DNA of 64,000 bases, taken from NCBI GenBank assembly GCA_036556905.1, contig DATBIM010000050.1:8207-72206 (forward strand), in the 5' to 3' direction. The translations under genes were made by a program, and so were the position numbers. Shown here in pieces: positions 6,803 through 63,984 of the stretch. Source of the stretch: Candidatus Methylomirabilota bacterium. GTDB lineage: Bacteria > Methylomirabilota > Methylomirabilia > Rokubacteriales > CSP1-6. Numbering within the stretch: position 1 is the stretch's first letter; each line of letters opens with the position of its first letter. Below the pieces are notes generated by a model. The model was not told where the DNA came from and did no database searches. It saw only the letters and a list, made by a program, of their open reading frames with translations.

Positions 6803-8296
6803 GTGCCCGCGGCCGCTCCCGGCCTCGCCTGGTCCGACTACGTGGTCCTCGCCCTCTGCCTCGCCCTGCTGCTCGTCATCGGCGCCGGCTTCAGCCGGCA
6901 GCGCGACACTGTCGACTTCTTCCTGGCCCGACGGCGCGTACCCTGGTGGGCGGTCTGCCTGAGCTTTCTGGCCACCGAGATCAGTGCCGTCACTATCATC
7001 TCGGTCCCGGCCACGGCCTATAGCGAGAACTGGGAATACCTGCAATTCTTCGTGGGGTCGAGCCTGGCCAAGTTCGCCGTGGCCTGGCTGTTCATCCCCG
7101 CCTTCTACCGGTACCAGGTCGTCACCATCTACGAGTTCCTGCTCCACCGATTCGGCCAGGCCAGCCAGGTGACGGCCGCGCTCTTCTTCTTCGTCACCCG
7201 GCTCCTCGGCTCCGGTGTCCGCTTGATGGCTGCGGCGCTGGCCGTCTCGATCCTGCTCGGCTGGCCGCTGCCCCCCACCATCGCCATCTTCGTTGCGATC
7301 TCGATCCTCTACATCGCCGCCGGCGGGGTGAAGGCGATCGTCTGGACCAACGTCTTCCAGGCGCTGGTGTTCCTGCTGGCGGGCGCGGCGACCCTGACGT
7401 GGGCGGTGGCGCAGGTAGCGGGCGGCCTGCCGGCTATCGTGGAGCTTGCCGGTCCCGCCGGCCGTCTCGACATCATCAACTGGGGGCCGGCCCCGGGTGC
7501 CTCCGACTTCTGGCGCCGGGTGCTCTCGGAACCCAATATCGTGTGGGTGGCGATCCTCAACGGCCTGGTAGGCTCGATGGCCGCGTTCGGCACCGACCAC
7601 GACCTCATGCAGCGATTGCTCACCGTCGAGACACGGCGCGAGAGCCAGATTACCCTGTCCCTCACCCCGCTCGGCACGCTCCTGACGCTCATCATCTACC
7701 TGGGGCTGGGCGCCGCCCTGTACGCCTTCTACGCTCAGCACCCGGAACTGCCGGTCTCCCGGCCCGACGAGATTCTGCCTCACTTCGTGCAGCAGACGAT
7801 GCCGTCGATGCTGCGTGGCCTCATGCTGAGCGCGATCGTGCTGGCGTCGATCGACTCGCCGCTCGGCTCCCTGTCCGCCTCTTTCGTGACCGACATCTAC
7901 CGTCCTCTCCTCGCCCCTCGACGGTCGGAACGGCACTATCTGCTCGTCTCACGGGTTGCCGTCGTCGTATTCGGTCTTGTCCTCGGGGGTATTGCCCACG
8001 CGTTTTCTGCCTTCAGCCAGATTCTCTGGCTGGCCTTCAAGATCGCGGGCGTGACGTTCGGGTCCCTGCTGGGGGTGTTCCTGCTGGGACTTGCCACCAA
8101 CCGTGCGGTGCGGGACTGGGCGAACGTCACAGCGATGCTGGTCATGGCCGCGGTGAACCTGACGCTGCTCGTGCTGTCTGAGACCGGCATCCTCGTCTTC
8201 GCCTGGTCGTGGCTCGTAATCATCGGGACGGCCGGCACCATCCTCCTCGCGGTCGTCACAACTCACGTCTCCCATTTGATCAATCGCCGACGGTGA
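6803..8296 (+). CDS. sodium:solute symporter (SSS family)
   Basis: 13-14 TM segments. N-terminal SDYVVLALCLALLLVIGAGFSRQRDTVDFFLARRRVPWW is typical of the SSS family. The last six codons and the TGA stop lie inside the first unit of the downstream tandem repeat. Confidence 0.85.
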   Translation: MPAAAPGLAWSDYVVLALCLALLLVIGAGFSRQRDTVDFFLARRRVPWWAVCLSFLATEISAVTIISVPATAYSENWEYLQFFVGSSLAKFAVAWLFIPAFYRYQVVTIYEFLLHRFGQASQVTAALFFFVTRLLGSGVRLMAAALAVSILLGWPLPPTIAIFVAISILYIAAGGVKAIVWTNVFQALVFLLAGAATLTWAVAQVAGGLPAIVELAGPAGRLDIINWGPAPGASDFWRRVLSEPNIVWVAILNGLVGSMAAFGTDHDLMQRLLTVETRRESQITLSLTPLGTLLTLIIYLGLGAALYAFYAQHPELPVSRPDEILPHFVQQTMPSMLRGLMLSAIVLASIDSPLGSLSASFVTDIYRPLLAPRRSERHYLLVSRVAVVVFGLVLGGIAHAFSAFSQILWLAFKIAGVTFGSLLGVFLLGLATNRAVRDWANVTAMLVMAAVNLTLLVLSETGILVFAWSWLVIIGTAGTILLAVVTTHVSHLINRRR

Positions 8297-8525
8297 TTCC
8301 GTGGGGGCATGGGCGTGCCGGAAGGCCGGGTGCCCATGCCCTGTTCAACAGATCAATCGCCGCCGGTGATTCCGGCGGGGCGCGGGCGTGGCGTGAGCCC
8401 GGGGGCCCGCGCCCTGTTCAACAGATCAATCGCCGCCGGTGATTCCGGCGGGGCGCGGGCGTGGCGTGAGCCCGGGGCCTGCGCCCTGTTCAACAGATCA
8501 ATCGCCGCCGGTGATTCCGGCGGGG
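8271..8525. repeat. tandem palindromic repeat array, 72-73 bp period, about 3.5 units
   Basis: Unit is ccctgttcaaca + gatcaatcgCCGCCGGtgattCCGGCGGgg + CGCGGGCgtggcgtgagcccggggGCCCGCG. Unit starts are 8339, 8412 and 8484, with a diverged first unit from about 8271. Each unit has two GC-rich hairpins. The first unit carries CATGGGC...GCCCATG in place of CGCGGGC...GCCCGCG, a compensatory change. Confidence 0.85.
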
Positions 8526-8529
8526 CCGC

Positions 8530-8574
8530 AGTGCGAGCCGAGACGCGTCACGCGGCGAGGCGAGCGGCGAAATG
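8530..8574. repeat. dispersed 45-nt hairpin motif, copy A (AGTGCGAGCCGAG-[palindrome]-GCGAGGCGAGCGG-CGAAATG)
   Basis: Immediately follows the tandem array. The same motif recurs at 15936-15980 with identical 13-nt flanks and a different but still palindromic 12-nt core (ACGCGTCACGCG here). Confidence 0.7.
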
Positions 8575-8607
8575 ACCGAAATGGCGTCAGCCCGGGTGCT
8601 GGTCGAC

Positions 8608-15139: not shown

Positions 15140-15937
15140 ATGCGCTTGGCCGGCAAGGTCGCGATCGTCACGGGAGGAGGCAGTGGCATCGGGCGGGGGA
15201 TCGCCATGGCGCTGGCCCGCGAGGGTGCTGACGTGGCCATTCCCGACATTCAGGTTCTGAACGCGGAGAAGGTCTCCGACGAGATCAAGGGGCTGGGCCG
15301 AAAGGCGATGGCCATGAAGGCCGACGTCACCAGCTCCGCCGACGTCAAGACCATGGTCGACCGGACGCGGGAGTCCCTGGGCAAGATCGATATTCTCGTC
15401 AATAACGCCGGTATGGCGGCGCCCCCGGGCATGCCGTTCACCAACAACACCGAGGACGATTGGGATCGCGCCTTCGCCGTCAACACCAAGTCGGTGTTCC
15501 TCACCTGCAAGGCCGTCGCGCCCTACTTCATCGAGCGCAAGGCCGGGCGGATCATCAACATCGCGTCGATCGCAGGGCCCCTGGCGGCCGTCACCATGCC
15601 GGCCTACAGCGTGGCCAAGCAGGGGGTGATCACGTTCACTCGCGTGGTGGCCAAGGAGCTGGCGGCCCACCGGATCACCGTGAACGCGATCTGCCCCGGC
15701 GTCTTGTGGACGGATTTCTGGCAGAAGCTCGCGGCCCACATCGCGCAGACGAACCCGGCCTTCGCTGGACTGACGCCGCGACAGGTGTTCGACAAGCGGG
15801 TCAGTGACATCGTGCCGATGAAGTGTGAGCAGGAGCCCGAGGACATCGGCGCCGCCGCGGTCTTCCTGGCTTCAGACGAAGCGCGCTACATCACCGGCCA
15901 GGCCCTCATGGTCGACGGCGGGTGTGTGATGTGGTAG
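15140..15937 (+). CDS. SDR-family oxidoreductase (3-oxoacyl-ACP reductase-like)
   Basis: TGGGSGIGRG cofactor motif, NNAG, catalytic YSVAK, PG motif. Confidence 0.85.
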   Translation: MRLAGKVAIVTGGGSGIGRGIAMALAREGADVAIPDIQVLNAEKVSDEIKGLGRKAMAMKADVTSSADVKTMVDRTRESLGKIDILVNNAGMAAPPGMPFTNNTEDDWDRAFAVNTKSVFLTCKAVAPYFIERKAGRIINIASIAGPLAAVTMPAYSVAKQGVITFTRVVAKELAAHRITVNAICPGVLWTDFWQKLAAHIAQTNPAFAGLTPRQVFDKRVSDIVPMKCEQEPEDIGAAAVFLASDEARYITGQALMVDGGCVMW

Positions 15938-16026
15938 TGCGAGCCGAGGCGCCTTGGGCGGCGAGGCGAGCGGTGAGATGGGGGTGGTAGTGCGAGCCGC
16001 AGGACCTCGCGGGGAGGCCAGCGCGT
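15936..16026. repeat. dispersed 45-nt hairpin motif, copies B1 (15936-15980) and B2 (about 15989-16026) in tandem
   Basis: B1 is agtgcgagccgagGCGCCTTGGGCGgcgaggcgagcggtgagatg and is 38/45 identical to copy A, with a compensated palindromic core. B2 repeats tggtagtgcgagccg 52 nt downstream. The motif starts at the SDR stop codon and ends 10 nt before the ACAD start. Confidence 0.7.
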
Positions 16027-16036
16027 AGGGGACACT

Positions 16037-17215
16037 ATGGACTTCGATTTCACGCCAGAGCAGGAGGCGTTCCGCAAAGAGGTCCGGCAATGGCTGGAGC
16101 GGACCCTGCCCGACGACCTGCGCGGGCGTGGCTTCGCCGCATCCCGCGCCGATCAGGCGGAGGTCCGCAAGCTGCGGACCTGGCAGAAGACGATGTACGA
16201 GGCGGGCTACGTCGGAATCGACTGGCCGCGCGAGTTTGGCGGGCGCGGAGCCACGCTCGTCGAGCAGATCATCCTGTACCAGGAGATGGCCCGCGCCGAA
16301 TCACCCCAACCCGTCAACCGGGGCGGACTCTCGATGCTAGGTCCCACCCTGATGAAGTACGGCACCCCGGTCCAGCAACGGAGATTTTTGTCCCGAATCC
16401 TGACGGCGGATGACCTCTGGTGTCAGGGCTTCTCCGAGCCGAACTCGGGATCCGACCTGGCCAACCTCCAGACGCGGGCGGTGCGCGACGGGGATGCGTT
16501 CGTCGTCACTGGCCAGAAGGTCTGGACGAGCATGGCCCACGTGGCCGACTGGTGCTTCCTGCTCGTGCGGACCGACCCGCAAGCCGCCCGGCATAAGGGC
16601 ATCAGCTTCCTGCTGGTCGACATGCGATCACCGGGCATCACGGTGCGGCCCCTGCGTCAGATGACGGGGGAAGCCGAGTTCAACGAGGTGTTCTTCGACG
16701 GGGTGCGGGTCCCCGCCGAGAACCTGGTGGGCCGGCTCAATGAGGGGTGGTCGGTCGCCATCACCACGCTGGCTTACGAGCGCGACCTCCTCACCTTCAT
16801 TCGACACGTCTCGCTTCGCAGCGCCGTCCAGCGCCTGGTACGCCTCGTTCAGGAGCACGATCGGGCCGCCGAGCGGGCGCTCCGCCAGAAGATCGCGGGG
16901 ATCTGGATCGGTGAGCAGGCGCTGCAGCTCAACGCCTATCGCAGTCTGACGAAGATTCTGCGCGGGGGCCAGCCGGGACCGGAAGGCTCGACGTCCAAGC
17001 TCTACTGGAGCCAGGTGGACCAGGAGCTGGCCCAGGTGGCCACCGAGGTGCTCGGACCCTTTTCCCAGGTCGCCGGCGGCTCGCCCTGGGCGCTCGACGA
17101 CGGGCAGTGGGAGTTCTACGCGTTGCTCGCCCAGGCGAGCGGAATCCGAGCCGGCACATCGGAGATTCTCCGAAACATCCTGAGCGAGCGCGTGCTCGGG
17201 CTGCCCAAGGACTGA
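16037..17215 (+). CDS. acyl-CoA dehydrogenase family protein
   Basis: 392 aa. N-terminal MDFDFTPEQEAFRKEVRQW, middle and C-terminal ACAD domain blocks (CQGFSEPNSGSDLANL, YRSLTKILRGG). Confidence 0.85.
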   Translation: MDFDFTPEQEAFRKEVRQWLERTLPDDLRGRGFAASRADQAEVRKLRTWQKTMYEAGYVGIDWPREFGGRGATLVEQIILYQEMARAESPQPVNRGGLSMLGPTLMKYGTPVQQRRFLSRILTADDLWCQGFSEPNSGSDLANLQTRAVRDGDAFVVTGQKVWTSMAHVADWCFLLVRTDPQAARHKGISFLLVDMRSPGITVRPLRQMTGEAEFNEVFFDGVRVPAENLVGRLNEGWSVAITTLAYERDLLTFIRHVSLRSAVQRLVRLVQEHDRAAERALRQKIAGIWIGEQALQLNAYRSLTKILRGGQPGPEGSTSKLYWSQVDQELAQVATEVLGPFSQVAGGSPWALDDGQWEFYALLAQASGIRAGTSEILRNILSERVLGLPKD

Positions 17216-52926: not shown

Positions 52927-53664
52927 GTGATCGCCATCATCGATTACGGCCGCGGCAACCTGGGCTCGGTGGAAAAGGCCTTCCAGCGCGTCGGTGTGCC
53001 GGCGACGGTCACCCAGGATCCGCGCGTGGTCGAGGACGCCGAGGCGGTGGTGCTCCCTGGAGACGGGGCATTTCACGACGCGATGGCGAATCTGGATCAA
53101 CTGGGGTTGCGGGCGCCGCTGGTGCGCGCCCTGGACGGACGCCGGCCTTTCCTGGGAATCTGCCTGGGCTATCAGCTCCTGTTCTCGAGCAGTGAGGAGT
53201 TCGGCCAGGGCCGCGGGCTGGACGTCATCCCCGGTGTGGTGCGGCGCTTCCCGCCCGGCCGGAAGGTCCCGCACATGGGTTGGAATCGCGTCCACCACGG
53301 CGGCGGGCTCCGGCTGTTCGAGGGGATCCCCGACGGCGCGCACTTCTACTTCGTCCACTCTTACTATCCTGTTGTAGCGGGGGCCGAGAGCCCGGGTACG
53401 ACCGAGGGTGGCCTGTCTCCGGTGGCCGGGGCTCCGGACGCCCGGTCGACCGCTGGCCTGTCTCCGGTGGCCGGGGCTCCGGACGCCCGGTCGACGGGCT
53501 CGAGTGCTTCACTCCGGGTGGCATGGTGCGAATACGGCGTGCGGTTCGCGGCGGCCCTGGAGCGTGGGCGGATCTTCGCGACGCAGTTCCATCCCGAGAA
53601 GAGCCAGCGCTGGGGGTTGCGGCTCCTCGAGAACTTCGCCGCATTCGTGAAGAGCGGCGGATGA
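52927..53664 (+). CDS. hisH: imidazole glycerol phosphate synthase, glutamine amidotransferase subunit, with a roughly 35-aa insertion containing a tandem repeat
   Basis: IAIIDYGRGNLGSV, catalytic GICLGYQLL and FHPEKS motifs. 245 aa against the usual 200 or so. The extra residues lie between YFVHSYY and the C-terminal FHPEKS block. Confidence 0.85.
   Translation: MIAIIDYGRGNLGSVEKAFQRVGVPATVTQDPRVVEDAEAVVLPGDGAFHDAMANLDQLGLRAPLVRALDGRRPFLGICLGYQLLFSSSEEFGQGRGLDVIPGVVRRFPPGRKVPHMGWNRVHHGGGLRLFEGIPDGAHFYFVHSYYPVVAGAESPGTTEGGLSPVAGAPDARSTAGLSPVAGAPDARSTGSSASLRVAWCEYGVRFAAALERGRIFATQFHPEKSQRWGLRLLENFAAFVKSGG
53409..53495 (+). repeat. 45-bp in-frame tandem duplication inside hisH (two copies)
   Basis: tggcctgtctccggtggccggggctccggacgcccggtcgac occurs at 53409-53450 and again at 53454-53495, separated by cgc. 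It encodes GLSPVAGAPDARST twice in the hisH reading frame. Confidence 0.85.
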
Positions 53665-63786: not shown

Positions 63787-63858
63787 GCTGGCGTAGCTCA
63801 GGGGAAGAGCAACTGCCTTGTAAGCAGTGGGTCGGGGGTTCAAATCCTCCCGCCAGCG
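63787..63858 (+). tRNA. tRNA-Thr (anticodon TGT)
   Basis: Cloverleaf folded by hand. Acceptor gctggcg/cgccagc, D-stem gctc/gagc, anticodon stem actgc/gcagt with loop cTTGTaa, T-arm gggggTTCAAATcctcc, discriminator G. CCA is encoded at 63859-63861. Confidence 0.85.
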
Positions 63859-63901: not shown

Positions 63902-63984
63902 GGGGAGGTACCCAAGTGGCCAAAGGGGGCAGACTGTAAATCTGCTGGCGTACGCCTTCGGGGGTTCAAATCCTCCCCTCCCCA
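63902..63984 (+). tRNA. tRNA-Tyr (anticodon GTA)
   Basis: Acceptor ggggagg/cctcccc, 3-bp D-stem, anticodon stem gcaga/tctgc with loop cTGTAaa, long variable arm (ggcg-ta-cgcc), the same T-arm as tRNA-Thr, discriminator A. CCA is encoded at 63985-63987. Confidence 0.85.

Follow-up and report, generated by a model that had tools for sequence, protein, structure and literature searches.

The window, i.e. the whole stretch of 64,000 nucleotides that was analysed, contains units of a short hairpin element at two sites on the + strand. Site A adjoins a 73-nt tandem array, and site B lies between an SDR gene and an acyl-CoA dehydrogenase (ACAD) gene. The features are as follows (coordinates, strand, description):

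8278..8530, +, 73-nt tandem array adjoining site A; a separate repeat family, the last unit of which carries the G·A element
8525..8532, +, 5' box of site A, GCCGCAGT; GCAG-tag variant of the consensus GTGG(C/T)AGT
8532..8566, +, hairpin of site A; covariance-model match 8521-8580, 70 bits, E = 3e-14
8565..8580, +, 3' tail of site A, CGGCGAAATGACCGAA; consensus GGTGA(A/G)ATGG(Y)CGGA(A/G)
15140..15937, +, SDR gene upstream of site B; 265 aa, Pfam adh_short, terminates in the element
15931..15938, +, 5' box of site B unit 1, GTGGTAGT; box TAG 15935-15937 is the SDR stop
15938..15972, +, hairpin of site B unit 1; covariance-model match 15927-15979, 56.9 bits
15971..15983, +, tail/linker of site B unit 1, CGGTGAGATGGGG
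15984..16036, +, degenerate second unit of site B; ends at the ACAD start ATG 16037
16037..17215, +, ACAD gene downstream of site B; co-directional with the SDR gene

The two full motif copies that the first-pass annotation had placed at 8530-8574 and 15936-15980 are both present exactly as described there, and the latter copy does begin on the SDR stop codon (TAG, 15935-15937). The pattern AGTGCGAGCCGAG-N12-GCGAGGCGAGCGG, with 3 mismatches tolerated, matched the window only at 8530-8567 and 15936-15973 (+ strand), and had no match in 100 shuffled versions of the window; a covariance-model scan of the window found no copies beyond sites A and B. A chance match as the origin of the motif is ruled out (0 expected by chance; hundreds of family members).

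The 13-nt flanks of the motif are identical, as had been reported, but rather than simple direct repeats they represent the paired arms of a 35-nt hairpin. The 12-nt core differs between the copies in the compensatory manner that had been proposed; it is not a full palindrome, however, but consists of N, a 4-bp stem and a 3-nt loop, with the pairs C2-G12, G3-C11, C4-G10 and N5-N9, of which exactly one differs between sites A and B (G-C vs. C-G).

At site A, the hairpin is closed by T8532·G8566, with the left arm GCGAGCCGAG at 8533-8542, the right arm G+CGAGGCGAGC at 8555-8565, and a tip at 8543-8554 with a 4-bp stem (CGCG/CGCG) and the loop TCA. It holds two tandem G·A mismatches, the same arm pairing is obtained in the ViennaRNA fold, and its pairs covary across 87 and 57 units; the 3' tail is unchanged in 6 related contigs. 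The neighbouring 73-nt array has two fewer units in contigs L001 and L004, its junction sequences with the G·A element are common to L058, L065 and L066, and the entire block of array and element is missing from L208.

At site B, unit 1 has its left arm at 15939-15948, a tip at 15949-15960 (stem CGCC/GGCG, loop TTG) and its right arm at 15961-15971. Its minimum free energy structure is exactly this hairpin under both RNA and DNA parameters (-20.9 kcal/mol on the + strand vs. -12.4 on the - strand), and a TGA in its tail (15974-15976) shares the frame of the TAG at 15935. The second copy downstream does form the direct repeat that had been noted, but at an offset of 53 nt (15931 vs. 15984) and not 52 nt, and is no partial copy but a degenerate complete unit (15980-16037; covariance model, 24.4 bits, E = 0.0055). 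It comprises the box GTGGTAGT at 15984-15991, followed by GCGAGCCGCAG...GGGAGGCCAGCG and a TAG at 16026-16028, and resembles a short 44-nt subfamily and a remnant in L206. Orthologs of the SDR gene are 84-98% identical in metagenome-assembled genomes (MAGs) of Rokubacteria/Methylomirabilota.

Unit anatomy and predicted fold

A unit of about 53-56 nt is composed of a 5' box (GTGG(T/C)AGT), the 35-nt hairpin and a 3' tail (GGTGA(A/G)ATGG(Y)CGGA), the box and tail consensus being drawn from 171 unique sites among the matches listed. The arm 5'-GCGAGCCGAG pairs with CGAGGCGAGC-3' via Watson-Crick pairs and two tandem G·A mismatches. From the base upward, the stem reads U·G, G-C, C-G, tandem G·A/A·G, G-C, C-G and C-G (or U·G), and continues towards the tip with tandem G·A/A·G, G-C and N·G, followed by a sequence-variable 4-bp tip and a loop of 3-5 nt. 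Tips of 10, 13 and 14 nt were also found, and 61 distinct tips keep their pairing. The tag (positions -5 to -2) of 71 first units reads GTAG in 26 (37%), GCAG in 24 (34%), GCCG in 8 and otherwise in 13, with G at -2 and T at -1 preset by the search patterns.

The hairpin was predicted de novo by ViennaRNA. In 87 units, 92.8% of the pairing cells are paired vs. 73.8% after shuffling (none of 500 shuffles attained the observed value), and at most 56% of the cells pair when the partners are slid. Covariation was found in eight of the 12 pairs; the arm pairs L6-R5 (CG 52, GC 26, UA 3), L7-R4 (UG 48, CG 35, GC 3, UA 1) and L10-R1 (GC 78, AU 5) illustrate the exchanges in these 87 units, and the tip pairs covary too. 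The GA dinucleotides are near-invariant, and the pairs adjacent to them covary. Inside a single array (L023), compensatory steps lead from CGG/CCG through CGG/CUG to CAG/CUG. For 143 of 144 units, the predicted fold of the top strand is the more stable one (about -18 vs. -13 kcal/mol for the bottom strand), and the hairpin is predicted to form on the + (gene-sense) strand only.

The mismatch 5'CGAG3'/3'GAGC5' is a frequent and stabilising tandem mismatch in RNA (PMC2724281). The outer arm helix of the element (5'-GCGAGCC/GGCGAGC-3') presents the same context as the duplex (rGGCGAGCC)2 (SantaLucia & Turner 1993, cited in PMC2724281); this duplex, as it is described in the citing paper, is a model oligonucleotide and no genomic element, and it speaks only to the physical plausibility of the pairing in RNA. 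The combination of invariant tandem G·A with covarying Watson-Crick pairs is a signature of specific recognition and points to a putative trans-acting protein.

Distribution, gene context and variation

Pattern scans, of the kind that the first-pass annotation had proposed for the genome, located about 170 unique sites of the element, in soil metagenomes as well as in at least 38 MAGs of Rokubacteria/Methylomirabilota, and the covariance model that was likewise proposed and then built also recovers the degenerate unit of site B. An exact-pattern scan of one genome per species yielded 76 stretches: 66 in MAGs labelled Rokubacteria, Rokuibacteriota or Methylomirabil*, three further genuine stretches under other labels, and seven chance-like matches in other taxa that have no flanks. 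A metagenome scan in which every Watson-Crick arm position was free to vary gave at least 120 matches. Among the matches listed, there are at least 196 sites (at least 171 unique), i.e. 50 arrays of 2-6 units (modal period 53-56 nt) and 146 units that stand alone; at least 48 different settings of flanking genes are represented, and at least 38 genomes contribute. At one locus (L143), an inverted pair of arrays flanks ferredoxin-like and IlvD-like genes, with no transposase. Copies per genome are apparently low (at most four exact-arm loci per MAG, one in a 1-Mb contig, two sites in the 64-kb window). Identical cores were shared by 7 of 49 pairs within genomes vs. 77 of 2436 pairs between genomes (p = 0.001); genome specificity applies to cores and tails alike, and to the tails even at orthologous sites.

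Viral contigs yielded only two chance matches to the element. At the Rfam gathering score, two tRNAs alone were detected in the window and the element matched no family; at E <= 5, nothing was found over 15850-16100, and two chance-level matches (E = 2-3) fell in the 73-nt array. Literature searches on the motif sequence and on REPs of Rokubacteria returned nothing relevant. The Rokubacteria are abundant, uncultured bacteria of soil and groundwater with large genomes, and we know of no repeat family described for them. The element is a previously undescribed family restricted to this one phylum of uncultured bacteria. The first-pass annotation had overlooked this restriction as well as the extended G·A hairpin, the tandem arrays and the copy-number polymorphism.

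The orientation of the copies relative to genes is strongly biased, with 97 sites in sense to both flanking genes vs. 10 in antisense among the matches listed. For co-directional neighbours, the counts are 46 sense vs. 4 antisense in the genome set and 51 vs. 6 in the metagenome set (among the matches listed); they are approximate, as flanking genes were called by a GC1/GC2/GC3 ORF filter and not by a gene finder, and are consistent across the two independent sets. Intact antisense copies are represented by L061, L062, L073 and L076. Among the matches listed, all 91 pairs of adjacent units less than 300 nt apart share a strand (none is in opposite orientation), i.e. they are strictly head-to-tail.

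Upstream ORFs (n = 68) end at the box TAG (29), at an arm TGA (11), at the tail TGA (6) or at most 16 nt upstream of the element (12), so that about two-thirds (46 of 68) terminate within it. The arm TGA, at L7-L9, is found in 49 of the 87 units, and RTGGTAGTG represents overlapping stop and start codons. The tail provides the SD or start for rpmC, trpB and pdxT: in L074, a tail GTG is the pdxT start, and in L069 the PdxT reading frame takes in the element as an N-terminal extension. In its empty state, the pdxS/pdxT junction (TGGTAGCGTGCGG) is similar to the 5' end of the element. As judged from these reading frames, units give stop codons to the upstream ORF and, at some loci, the SD or start of the downstream gene. 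A coding explanation for the element itself was rejected: the window copies lie in different frames relative to the flanking ORFs, and neither the periods nor the lengths of the tips keep to multiples of 3 (array periods of 53, 56 and 55 are as common as 48 and 54).

The spacer between SDR and ACAD genes measures 99 nt in the window vs. 4 nt in L207 and 7 nt in L208, i.e. ACAD begins 4-7 nt past the SDR stop in the empty-site relatives, and the SSF/GH3 spacer measures 311 nt in the window vs. 13 nt in L208. No element was found in the syntenic relatives L205-L208. Since these relatives have empty sites with spacers of 4-13 nt, both window copies represent insertions, and on this comparative evidence units have been inserted where genes end or cistrons meet, into spacers that were very short. 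The 53-nt unit at 15931-15983 is present once in the window, L001 and L004 and twice in L002, L003 and L006 (near-identical metagenome contigs); it has evidently been gained or lost between these contigs, and the copy number of arrays differs between natural populations. Apart from the window lineage, an element at the SDR-ACAD junction occurs only in L077. The rplP-rpmC junction of the ribosomal-protein operon carries the element in four species (with 1, 1, 2 and 6 units).

Interpretation and alternatives

The motif is probably a unit of a lineage-specific family of small non-coding repeats of the REP type in Candidatus Rokubacteria (Rokuibacteriota / GTDB Methylomirabilota), and a new REP-type (GTAG/GCAG-tagged) family of unusual architecture is the reading that we favour, with reasonable though not high confidence. 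Three options had been offered before. The mobile REP-like element fits best: copies are dispersed over at least 48 contexts and at least 38 genomes, empty sites exist, the tag is GTAG/GCAG, and TAG often serves as stop. The data also agree with a structured 3'-UTR motif, given the sense orientation of the hairpin and its restriction to the top strand. The third, a protein-binding site with GCGAG direct repeats, found no support, as the repeats pair and covary and the U·G pair would be A·C on the other strand. Like REPs, the element is a short imperfect palindrome with a stem-loop (the 35-nt hairpin), is extragenic and mostly downstream of ORFs, and often supplies a tag TAG as stop; inverted doublets of the REPIN/BIME kind were seen in 0 of 91 neighbouring unit pairs among the matches listed.

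For a REP-type family, the hairpin and 5' tag would be the recognition features for copying of the element to new sites, probably as single-stranded top-strand DNA by a putative REP/RAYT-like or IS200-like HUH enzyme. Slippage, or unequal recombination between the identical 15-16-nt ends of units, may expand or shrink the arrays, and only sense insertions might persist, because they terminate the upstream ORF and keep the downstream translation signals. The stable, presumably co-transcribed hairpin would sit in the mRNA and could bar 3' exonucleases or modulate translation termination, like classical REPs. Classical REP families usually flank their RAYT gene. A phmmer search (--max) with the single query E. 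coli RayT (NC_000913), of limited sensitivity and confined to loci around copies, gave no RAYT/Y1-transposase below E = 2 in 6043 + 1460 ORFs (window and about 190 loci, about 1.4 Mb); the RayT homolog search returned only close enterobacterial homologs. Clusters of neighbour ORFs were either syntenic sets (ribosomal-protein operon, pdxST, trpB) or large enzyme families, with no transposase candidate among them.

There is a modest chance that the element is a host-beneficial, cis-acting RNA, i.e. an intercistronic/3'-end 'punctuation' hairpin that stabilises or processes mRNA or organises termination and re-initiation; the invariant tandem G·A pairs would then serve recognition by a protein or the ribosome, with mobility secondary or extinct. 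The bias towards sense (97 vs. 10 sites, among the matches listed), the fold of the top strand only with its U·G pair in 48 of 87 units, and the near-invariant GA dinucleotides beside covarying pairs point in this direction, as do the persistence of the element at the rplP-rpmC junction in four species and the tail that gives an SD or start to rpmC, trpB and pdxT. Also, the 61 paired tips and the compensatory changes within one array (L023) look more like in-situ structural selection than a master-copy cloud, a pattern that favours a putative host-level RNA role. However, the element is dispensable, because relatives that lack it at the same junctions (4-13-nt spacers) keep intact genes; furthermore, intact antisense copies and copies within coding sequence (pdxT) occur, copy number differs between populations, tails are genome-specific at orthologous sites, as expected of a proliferating family, and no Rfam family matches.

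More doubtful is a 'punctuation cassette' for operons other than a classical REP, composed of a three-frame stop, a G·A hairpin bound by a putative Rokubacteria-specific RNA- or ssDNA-binding protein, and an SD/start, which would spread without RAYT or inverted pairs and target stop/start junctions in sense. Example routes for such a cassette are transcription/translation-coupled insertion, or microhomology copying between TGGTAG/GGTGA-like gene ends.

It is improbable that the element is a MIRU-like minisatellite or translational-coupling cassette, in which embedded stops, SD-like tail and starts would relay ribosomes, the hairpin would be incidental, and tandem duplication at a locus, together with recombination among gene junctions that are alike, would account for the spread. 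Such a cassette would be consistent with head-to-tail arrays of variable copy number inside operons and in gene orientation, with sense-strand stops in up to three frames (box TAG, arm TGA, tail TGA) that are used by 46 of 68 upstream ORFs, with the overlapping stop and start in RTGGTAGTG, with the PdxT extension in L069 and the pdxT start at the tail GTG in L074, and with the likeness of the empty pdxS/pdxT junction to the element's 5' end. However, the periods and the tip lengths of 10, 13 and 14 nt leave no conserved reading frame, conservation and covariation are strongest in the hairpin and not in codons, and local duplication alone cannot account for at least 48 unrelated contexts.

A double-stranded DNA site for a regulator that recognises GCGAG direct repeats two helical turns apart is very unlikely, even though GCGAGSCGAG is highly conserved and occurs twice per unit, 22 nt apart: these 'repeats' covary as antiparallel partners (C-G to G-C to U-A), in opposite senses and not in parallel, both the U·G pair (48 of 87 units) and the tandem G·A are meaningful on a single strand only, and sites are mostly found within operons or where genes end and not in promoter regions, with no promoter-like motif nearby. 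Least credible is a recoding signal, i.e. a hairpin 3' of UAG (PYLIS/readthrough-like) or of UGA (SECIS-like) with a 12-residue extension to the tail TGA; a TAG does stand 1 nt ahead of the hairpin at 29 of 68 sites and shares its frame with the tail TGA where the tip is 12 nt long, but the host genes are unrelated housekeeping genes (L16, PdxS, SDR) with normal C-termini whose empty-site orthologs end at the same residue, about half of the copies have CAG or CCG in place of TAG, tips of 10, 13 and 14 nt disrupt the frame, and many copies adjoin no stop codon.

Several established classes were rejected. There are no Rho-independent terminator-like sites at either locus, the tail reads GGTGARATG, and arrays lie inside a ribosomal-protein operon; no promoter was found at either locus. 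A CRISPR array would not have whole 48-56-nt units that are near-identical and no unique spacers, and an integron attC does not fit the anatomy, with no RYYYAAC/GTTRRRY motif.

The family provides a phylum-specific sequence marker and ready-made VNTR loci for strain typing in metagenomes, e.g. the 53-nt unit between SDR and ACAD genes, and is a likely cause of contig breaks in MAGs. In element-bearing genomes, gene calling is affected (C-terminal Trp-stop, N-terminal extensions), because the element ends two-thirds of the upstream ORFs and sometimes starts the next gene. The family is also a natural test case for REP-like proliferation without inverted pairing and with a nearly exclusive sense orientation.

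Comparison with known repeat families

GTAG-tagged REPs (E. coli REP/BIME, Pseudomonas, Stenotrophomonas) likewise consist of a short imperfect palindrome with a 5' tetranucleotide tag; they follow closely on ORFs where neighbouring genes are unidirectional or convergent, the tag often contributes its TAG as a stop codon, some copies are intragenic and in frame, stems contain G-T(U) pairs, and subfamilies differ by stem, loop and tail, with copy numbers that differ between strains (PMC3733652), all of which is shared with the Rokubacteria element. In contrast, its units are arranged only head-to-tail (91:0), whereas head-to-tail dimers are rare in known REPs (PMC3733652). It is strongly sense-biased (97:10), its stem is built on two invariant tandem G·A mismatches, and it has a conserved 16-nt 3' tail with SD- and start-like signals. 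Also unlike GTAG-REPs, it has a low apparent number of copies per genome, a tag that is GCAG as often as GTAG, and no RAYT gene seen around its copies (about 190 loci).

With the REPIN/RAYT systems (PMC3116915, PMC3337134, PMC3479197), the element shares a hairpin-based, non-autonomous nature without terminal inverted repeats or target-site duplications, and genome-specific sequence types that suggest within-genome proliferation. A REPIN is by definition an inverted REP doublet; none was found for the Rokubacteria element, nor a RAYT in the 1.4 Mb around its copies. MITEs derived from IS200/IS605 (PATE) are characterised by distinct subterminal hairpins at the left and right ends and by a TnpA in the genome; the Rokubacteria element has one conserved hairpin per unit, and its tail forms at most a weak second stem.

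The MIRU of Mycobacterium are reportedly units of 40-100 bp that are arranged head-to-tail in operons, with ends that overlap stop and start codons. Head-to-tail units in operons, in the direction of the genes and with variable copy number, are found for the Rokubacteria element too, a likeness by description and not by sequences. As for the small-ORF trait of MIRU, stop and start codons of the element are used at many loci, but periods and tips are not multiples of 3 and there is no frame conservation; MIRU are said not to be defined by a hairpin.

The Rickettsia palindromic elements (RPE), ERIC and Correia elements, all MITE-like repeats, are 100-150 bp long with terminal inverted repeats. 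They share with the Rokubacteria element that they are palindromic and can sit in frame within genes (pdxT in the present case), and their co-transcription with neighbouring genes would apply to it as well, whereas the Rokubacteria element is a single 35-nt hairpin with asymmetric flanks.

Motif copies in the window

The 38-nt motif AGTGCGAGCCGAG-N12-GCGAGGCGAGCGG matches the window only at 8530-8567 (site A) and 15936-15973 (site B), both on the + strand, even with three mismatches allowed, and not at all in 100 dinucleotide-preserving shuffles, which bears out the two copies at 8530 and 15936 reported in the first-pass annotation. Site A lies in a convergent 311-nt spacer, with a sodium:solute symporter gene on one side and a GH3 glycosidase gene on the other, directly 3' of a 73-nt tandem array; site B starts, as described earlier, on the stop codon of an SDR gene (TAG, 15935-15937). 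Neither promoter-like nor intrinsic-terminator-like motifs were found at the two sites. The window looks rokubacterial, and its SDR protein has orthologs of 84-98% identity in MAGs named Rokubacteria and Methylomirabilota. Features of the window are:

6803-8296, + strand: sodium:solute symporter gene, left of site A
8278-8530: 73-nt tandem array, ~3.5 units with two hairpins per unit, directly after the symporter stop codon
8608-10128, - strand: GH3 glycosidase gene, right of site A
16037-17215, + strand: acyl-CoA dehydrogenase (ACAD) gene, 99 nt downstream of the SDR stop at site B
63787-63858 and 63902-63984, + strand: two tRNA genes (Rfam), close to the window end

The 13-nt flanks are identical in both copies, as first noted, and are more than plain repeats, i.e. 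they form the two arms of a longer hairpin. The 12-nt core, taken for a palindrome, comprises one nucleotide, a 4-bp stem and a 3-nt loop, of which only the stem is palindromic; the compensatory difference proposed for the core holds, with one base pair differing between the two tips. Downstream of site B a second copy does follow as a direct repeat, at 53 nt and not 52; it had been called partial, and is a decayed complete unit (15980-16037; covariance model, E = 0.0055).

A hairpin under selection on one strand

Both copies belong to a ~55-nt repeat unit, the G·A element. Its left arm, 5'-GCGAGCCGAG-3', pairs antiparallel with the right arm, 5'-CGAGGCGAGC-3', in the order G-C, C-G, G·A, A·G, G-C, C-G, C-G, G·A, A·G, G-C; at its base the stem is closed by a U·G pair, and it ends in a variable tip. 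At site B the minimum-energy and centroid folds (ViennaRNA) are exactly this hairpin with RNA and DNA parameters alike, at -20.9 kcal/mol for the + strand versus -12.4 for the - strand, and in 143 of 144 family members the top (gene-sense) strand folds more stably than the complementary one (means ~-18 versus ~-13 kcal/mol). Few tandem mismatches stabilise RNA; 5'CGAG3'/3'GAGC5' is one of them and, in natural RNA, one of the most frequent (PMC2724281). The outer arm helix shares its sequence context with the model duplex (rGGCGAGCC)2 cited there. Two structural subfamilies occur (L041 3498-3778; L009 4500-4800; L007 array; L074 3952-4006; L020 915-969): a long form with a 73-nt period, whose tip holds a third nested CCGAG/CGAGG module (variant in L041), and a short form with a 44-nt period (GTGCGAGCCGCAGCCGGAGGCGAGGCGAGC), which the degenerate window unit at 15980-16037 and a remnant in contig L206 resemble.

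The arms of the genome data set were fixed by the search pattern, so covariation was read from the tip stem: the 61 distinct tips are 82% Watson-Crick in register versus 41% when shuffled, and show 58 double-change cells versus 25 in shuffles (0 of 500 shuffles reach 58). In the metagenome set, where every Watson-Crick arm position was left free, the 87 distinct units among the matches listed pair in 92.8% of cells, versus 73.8% when shuffled and at most 56% with slid partners. Among these units the arm pair L6-R5 is C-G in 52, G-C in 26 and U-A in 3; L7-R4 is U·G in 48, C-G in 35, G-C in 3 and U-A in 1, i.e. never unpaired; and L10-R1 is G-C in 78 and A-U in 5. In L007 the outermost pair has changed on both sides, from G-C to A-U. 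Among 144 units of defined structure, 131 carry the GA dinucleotides as GA/GA, a count biased by the choice of at least one unit per locus for GA, with the rest at background level.

On the other strand each U·G pair would turn into an A·C mismatch and each G·A pair into C·U/U·C; the selected structure is therefore the single-stranded top strand (RNA or ssDNA), and not the duplex. The element forms an extended top-strand hairpin in which Watson-Crick pairs covary, tandem G·A pairs are conserved, and selection acts on one strand. A protein-binding site with GCGAG direct repeats, one of the options raised at first, is disfavoured, since this pairing fits a single top strand and not duplex DNA.

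A phylum-restricted repeat family and its coding signals

A pattern search like that suggested earlier was run with GTGCGAGCCGAG-N10-14-GCGAGGCGAG on one genome per prokaryotic species and yielded 76 stretches: 66 from MAGs that bear the label Candidatus Rokubacteria, Rokuibacteriota or Methylomirabil*, three from otherwise-labelled MAGs, yet with the complete family signature, and seven isolated matches in other taxa without the flanks. An independent scan of metagenome contigs, in which only the 5' box, four GA dinucleotides and GGTGA were fixed, gave at least 120 matches. Pooled, the scans provide at least 196 sites (at least 171 unique by flanks) in at least 48 different flanking-gene contexts; the matches listed comprise 146 single units and 50 arrays, the latter with 2-6 units each and a modal period of 53-56 nt. 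The conserved span, from GTGG(C/T)AGT, 8 nt before the left arm, to GGTGA(A/G)ATGG(Y)CGGA, ~16 nt past the right arm, equals the array period, hence arrays are units joined head-to-tail without spacers. No Rfam family matches the element, no mention of the motif was found in a literature search, and IMG/VR viral contigs gave two matches only, both by chance. The G·A element is a real, widespread and phylum-restricted repeat family.

A check of orientation, also suggested earlier, revealed a strong bias: between co-directional neighbours the element is sense at 46 and antisense at 4 sites in genomes, and 51 and 6 among the metagenome matches listed, counts that are approximate as genes were called with a GC1/2/3 ORF filter. 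All 91 pairs of neighbouring units share a strand, and none is an inverted REPIN/BIME-type pair.

The element frequently donates stop codons and occasionally Shine-Dalgarno (SD) or start signals. Among 68 upstream coding-like ORFs, 29 end at the 5'-box TAG, 11 at the TGA arising when L7 = T, six at the tail TGA, and 12 end at most 16 nt upstream. The 3' tail holds an SD-like sequence (GGTGA, GGAG or AAGGA) and ATG or GTG. For example, at the rplP-rpmC (L16-L29) junction of a ribosomal-protein operon the element is found in four species (L016, two units; L018, one; L023, six; L033, one), and in all four its tail, which varies in sequence by genome, provides the SD of rpmC. The tail also supplies the likely start of trpB in L021/L040 and, as its GTG, the pdxT start codon at the pdxS-pdxT junction in L074; in L069 it stands in place of the pdxT start region, so that PdxT there must carry the translated element as an N-terminal extension. 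One unit lies in frame inside pdxT in three MAGs, L007, L030 and L042 (...ALARC-RSASRDRSTGEASPPVD-VEAVLVRKPEEL), and the empty junction in L042 (TGGTAG-C-GTGCGGATC) looks like the 5' end of the element. The main rival explanation, which we consider less likely, takes the element to be chiefly an RNA punctuation signal selected by the host.

L7 is T in 49 of the 87 metagenome units (alignment A5, column 14), giving the U·G pair together with a TGA in an otherwise open frame, and thereby a stop in every sense-strand frame; these units show few other wobble-compatible transitions. Either selection for a third-frame stop or simply a subfamily founder effect could account for this. In L082 (3929-4200) an array of four units is followed immediately, on the same strand, by a tRNA-like sequence.

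Insertion, array instability and relation to known repeats

The window copies are insertions relative to empty orthologous sites, and head-to-tail arrays vary in copy number at the population level. Six near-identical metagenome contigs with the genes of the window (L001-L006) were compared: the SDR-ACAD spacer is 99 nt in the window, L001 and L004, 152 nt in L002, L003 and L006 (one extra 53-nt unit), and 94 nt in L005 (a variant unit). Empty SDR-ACAD sites have spacers of 4 nt in L207 (...ATG TAC TGA cgcc ATG...) and 7 nt in L208, a syntenic 5.6-Mb contig (...ACC TGG TGA ttgccgc ATG...), and in L208 just 13 nt separate the symporter and GH3 genes; in L206 a remnant of 31 nt is left, starting TAG TGCGAGCCGCAG. 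A filter-free covariance-model search of distant ortholog loci, including these three, found no element.

SDR orthologs (P0121-P0240) all end at the same position, with W (84), Y (15), Q (14) or H (7) as C-terminal residue. Among the examples inspected, the Y form (L207), the H form (L205) and one W form (L208) end at a native TGA without the element, and the Q form (L206) ends CAG TAG, followed by the element remnant.

At site A, L001 and L004 have the 73-nt array with two units fewer than the window, and L208 lacks it altogether, as it does the G·A element, which in the window sits within the last 73-nt unit. L058, L065 and L066 have the array's module CGGTGATTCCGGCGGGGC and the array's 3' half (...GCCCGGGTGCCCATGCCCTGTTCAAC) beside G·A elements, with the same junction sequences; the two repeat families thus appear nested or travel together. 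Elsewhere, at 53409-53495, the window holds a perfect tandem duplication (TGGCCTGTCTCCGGTGGCCGGGGCTCCGGACGCCCGGTCGAC) of two 42-nt copies, 100% identical and 45 nt apart.

Two sites of one genome share an identical core in 7 of 49 pairs, and sites of different genomes in 77 of 2436 (p = 0.001). All four loci of AR7 (QHRU01) have the tail CGGTGAAATG and three share the core CCGGTGCCTCCG, and every JBGPZN locus has a CCTGTGA tail. Such genome-specific cores and tails hold even at orthologous junctions and indicate recent within-genome spread or concerted evolution.

The element would be mobilised as a single-stranded hairpin plus tag by a putative HUH-type enzyme, and arrays would grow and shrink by slippage or unequal recombination; the sense bias may be an orientation filter through selection, and the hairpin may act in mRNA with REP-like effects. 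The mobile REP-like element first proposed is the more probable reading and agrees with the insertions and with REP traits; neighbouring units form no inverted pairs, and single-query phmmer on the loci around ~190 sites found no RAYT.

By analogy, the family fits among the REP-like intergenic repeats. In GTAG-tagged REPs (PMC3733652) a terminal GTAG adjoins a palindrome, copies lie 3' of ORFs in unidirectional or convergent gene pairs, the stop codon is often the tag's TAG, some copies lie inside ORFs, G-T pairs are read as a sign of RNA function, and subfamilies differ in stems, loops and tails; these traits recur in the G·A family, the GTAG tag only in part. It differs in its tag (first units have GTAG in 37% and GCAG in 34%), strong sense bias, two invariant tandem G·A pairs in the stem, conserved 3' tail and apparently low copy number, and its in-frame intragenic copies resemble RPEs.
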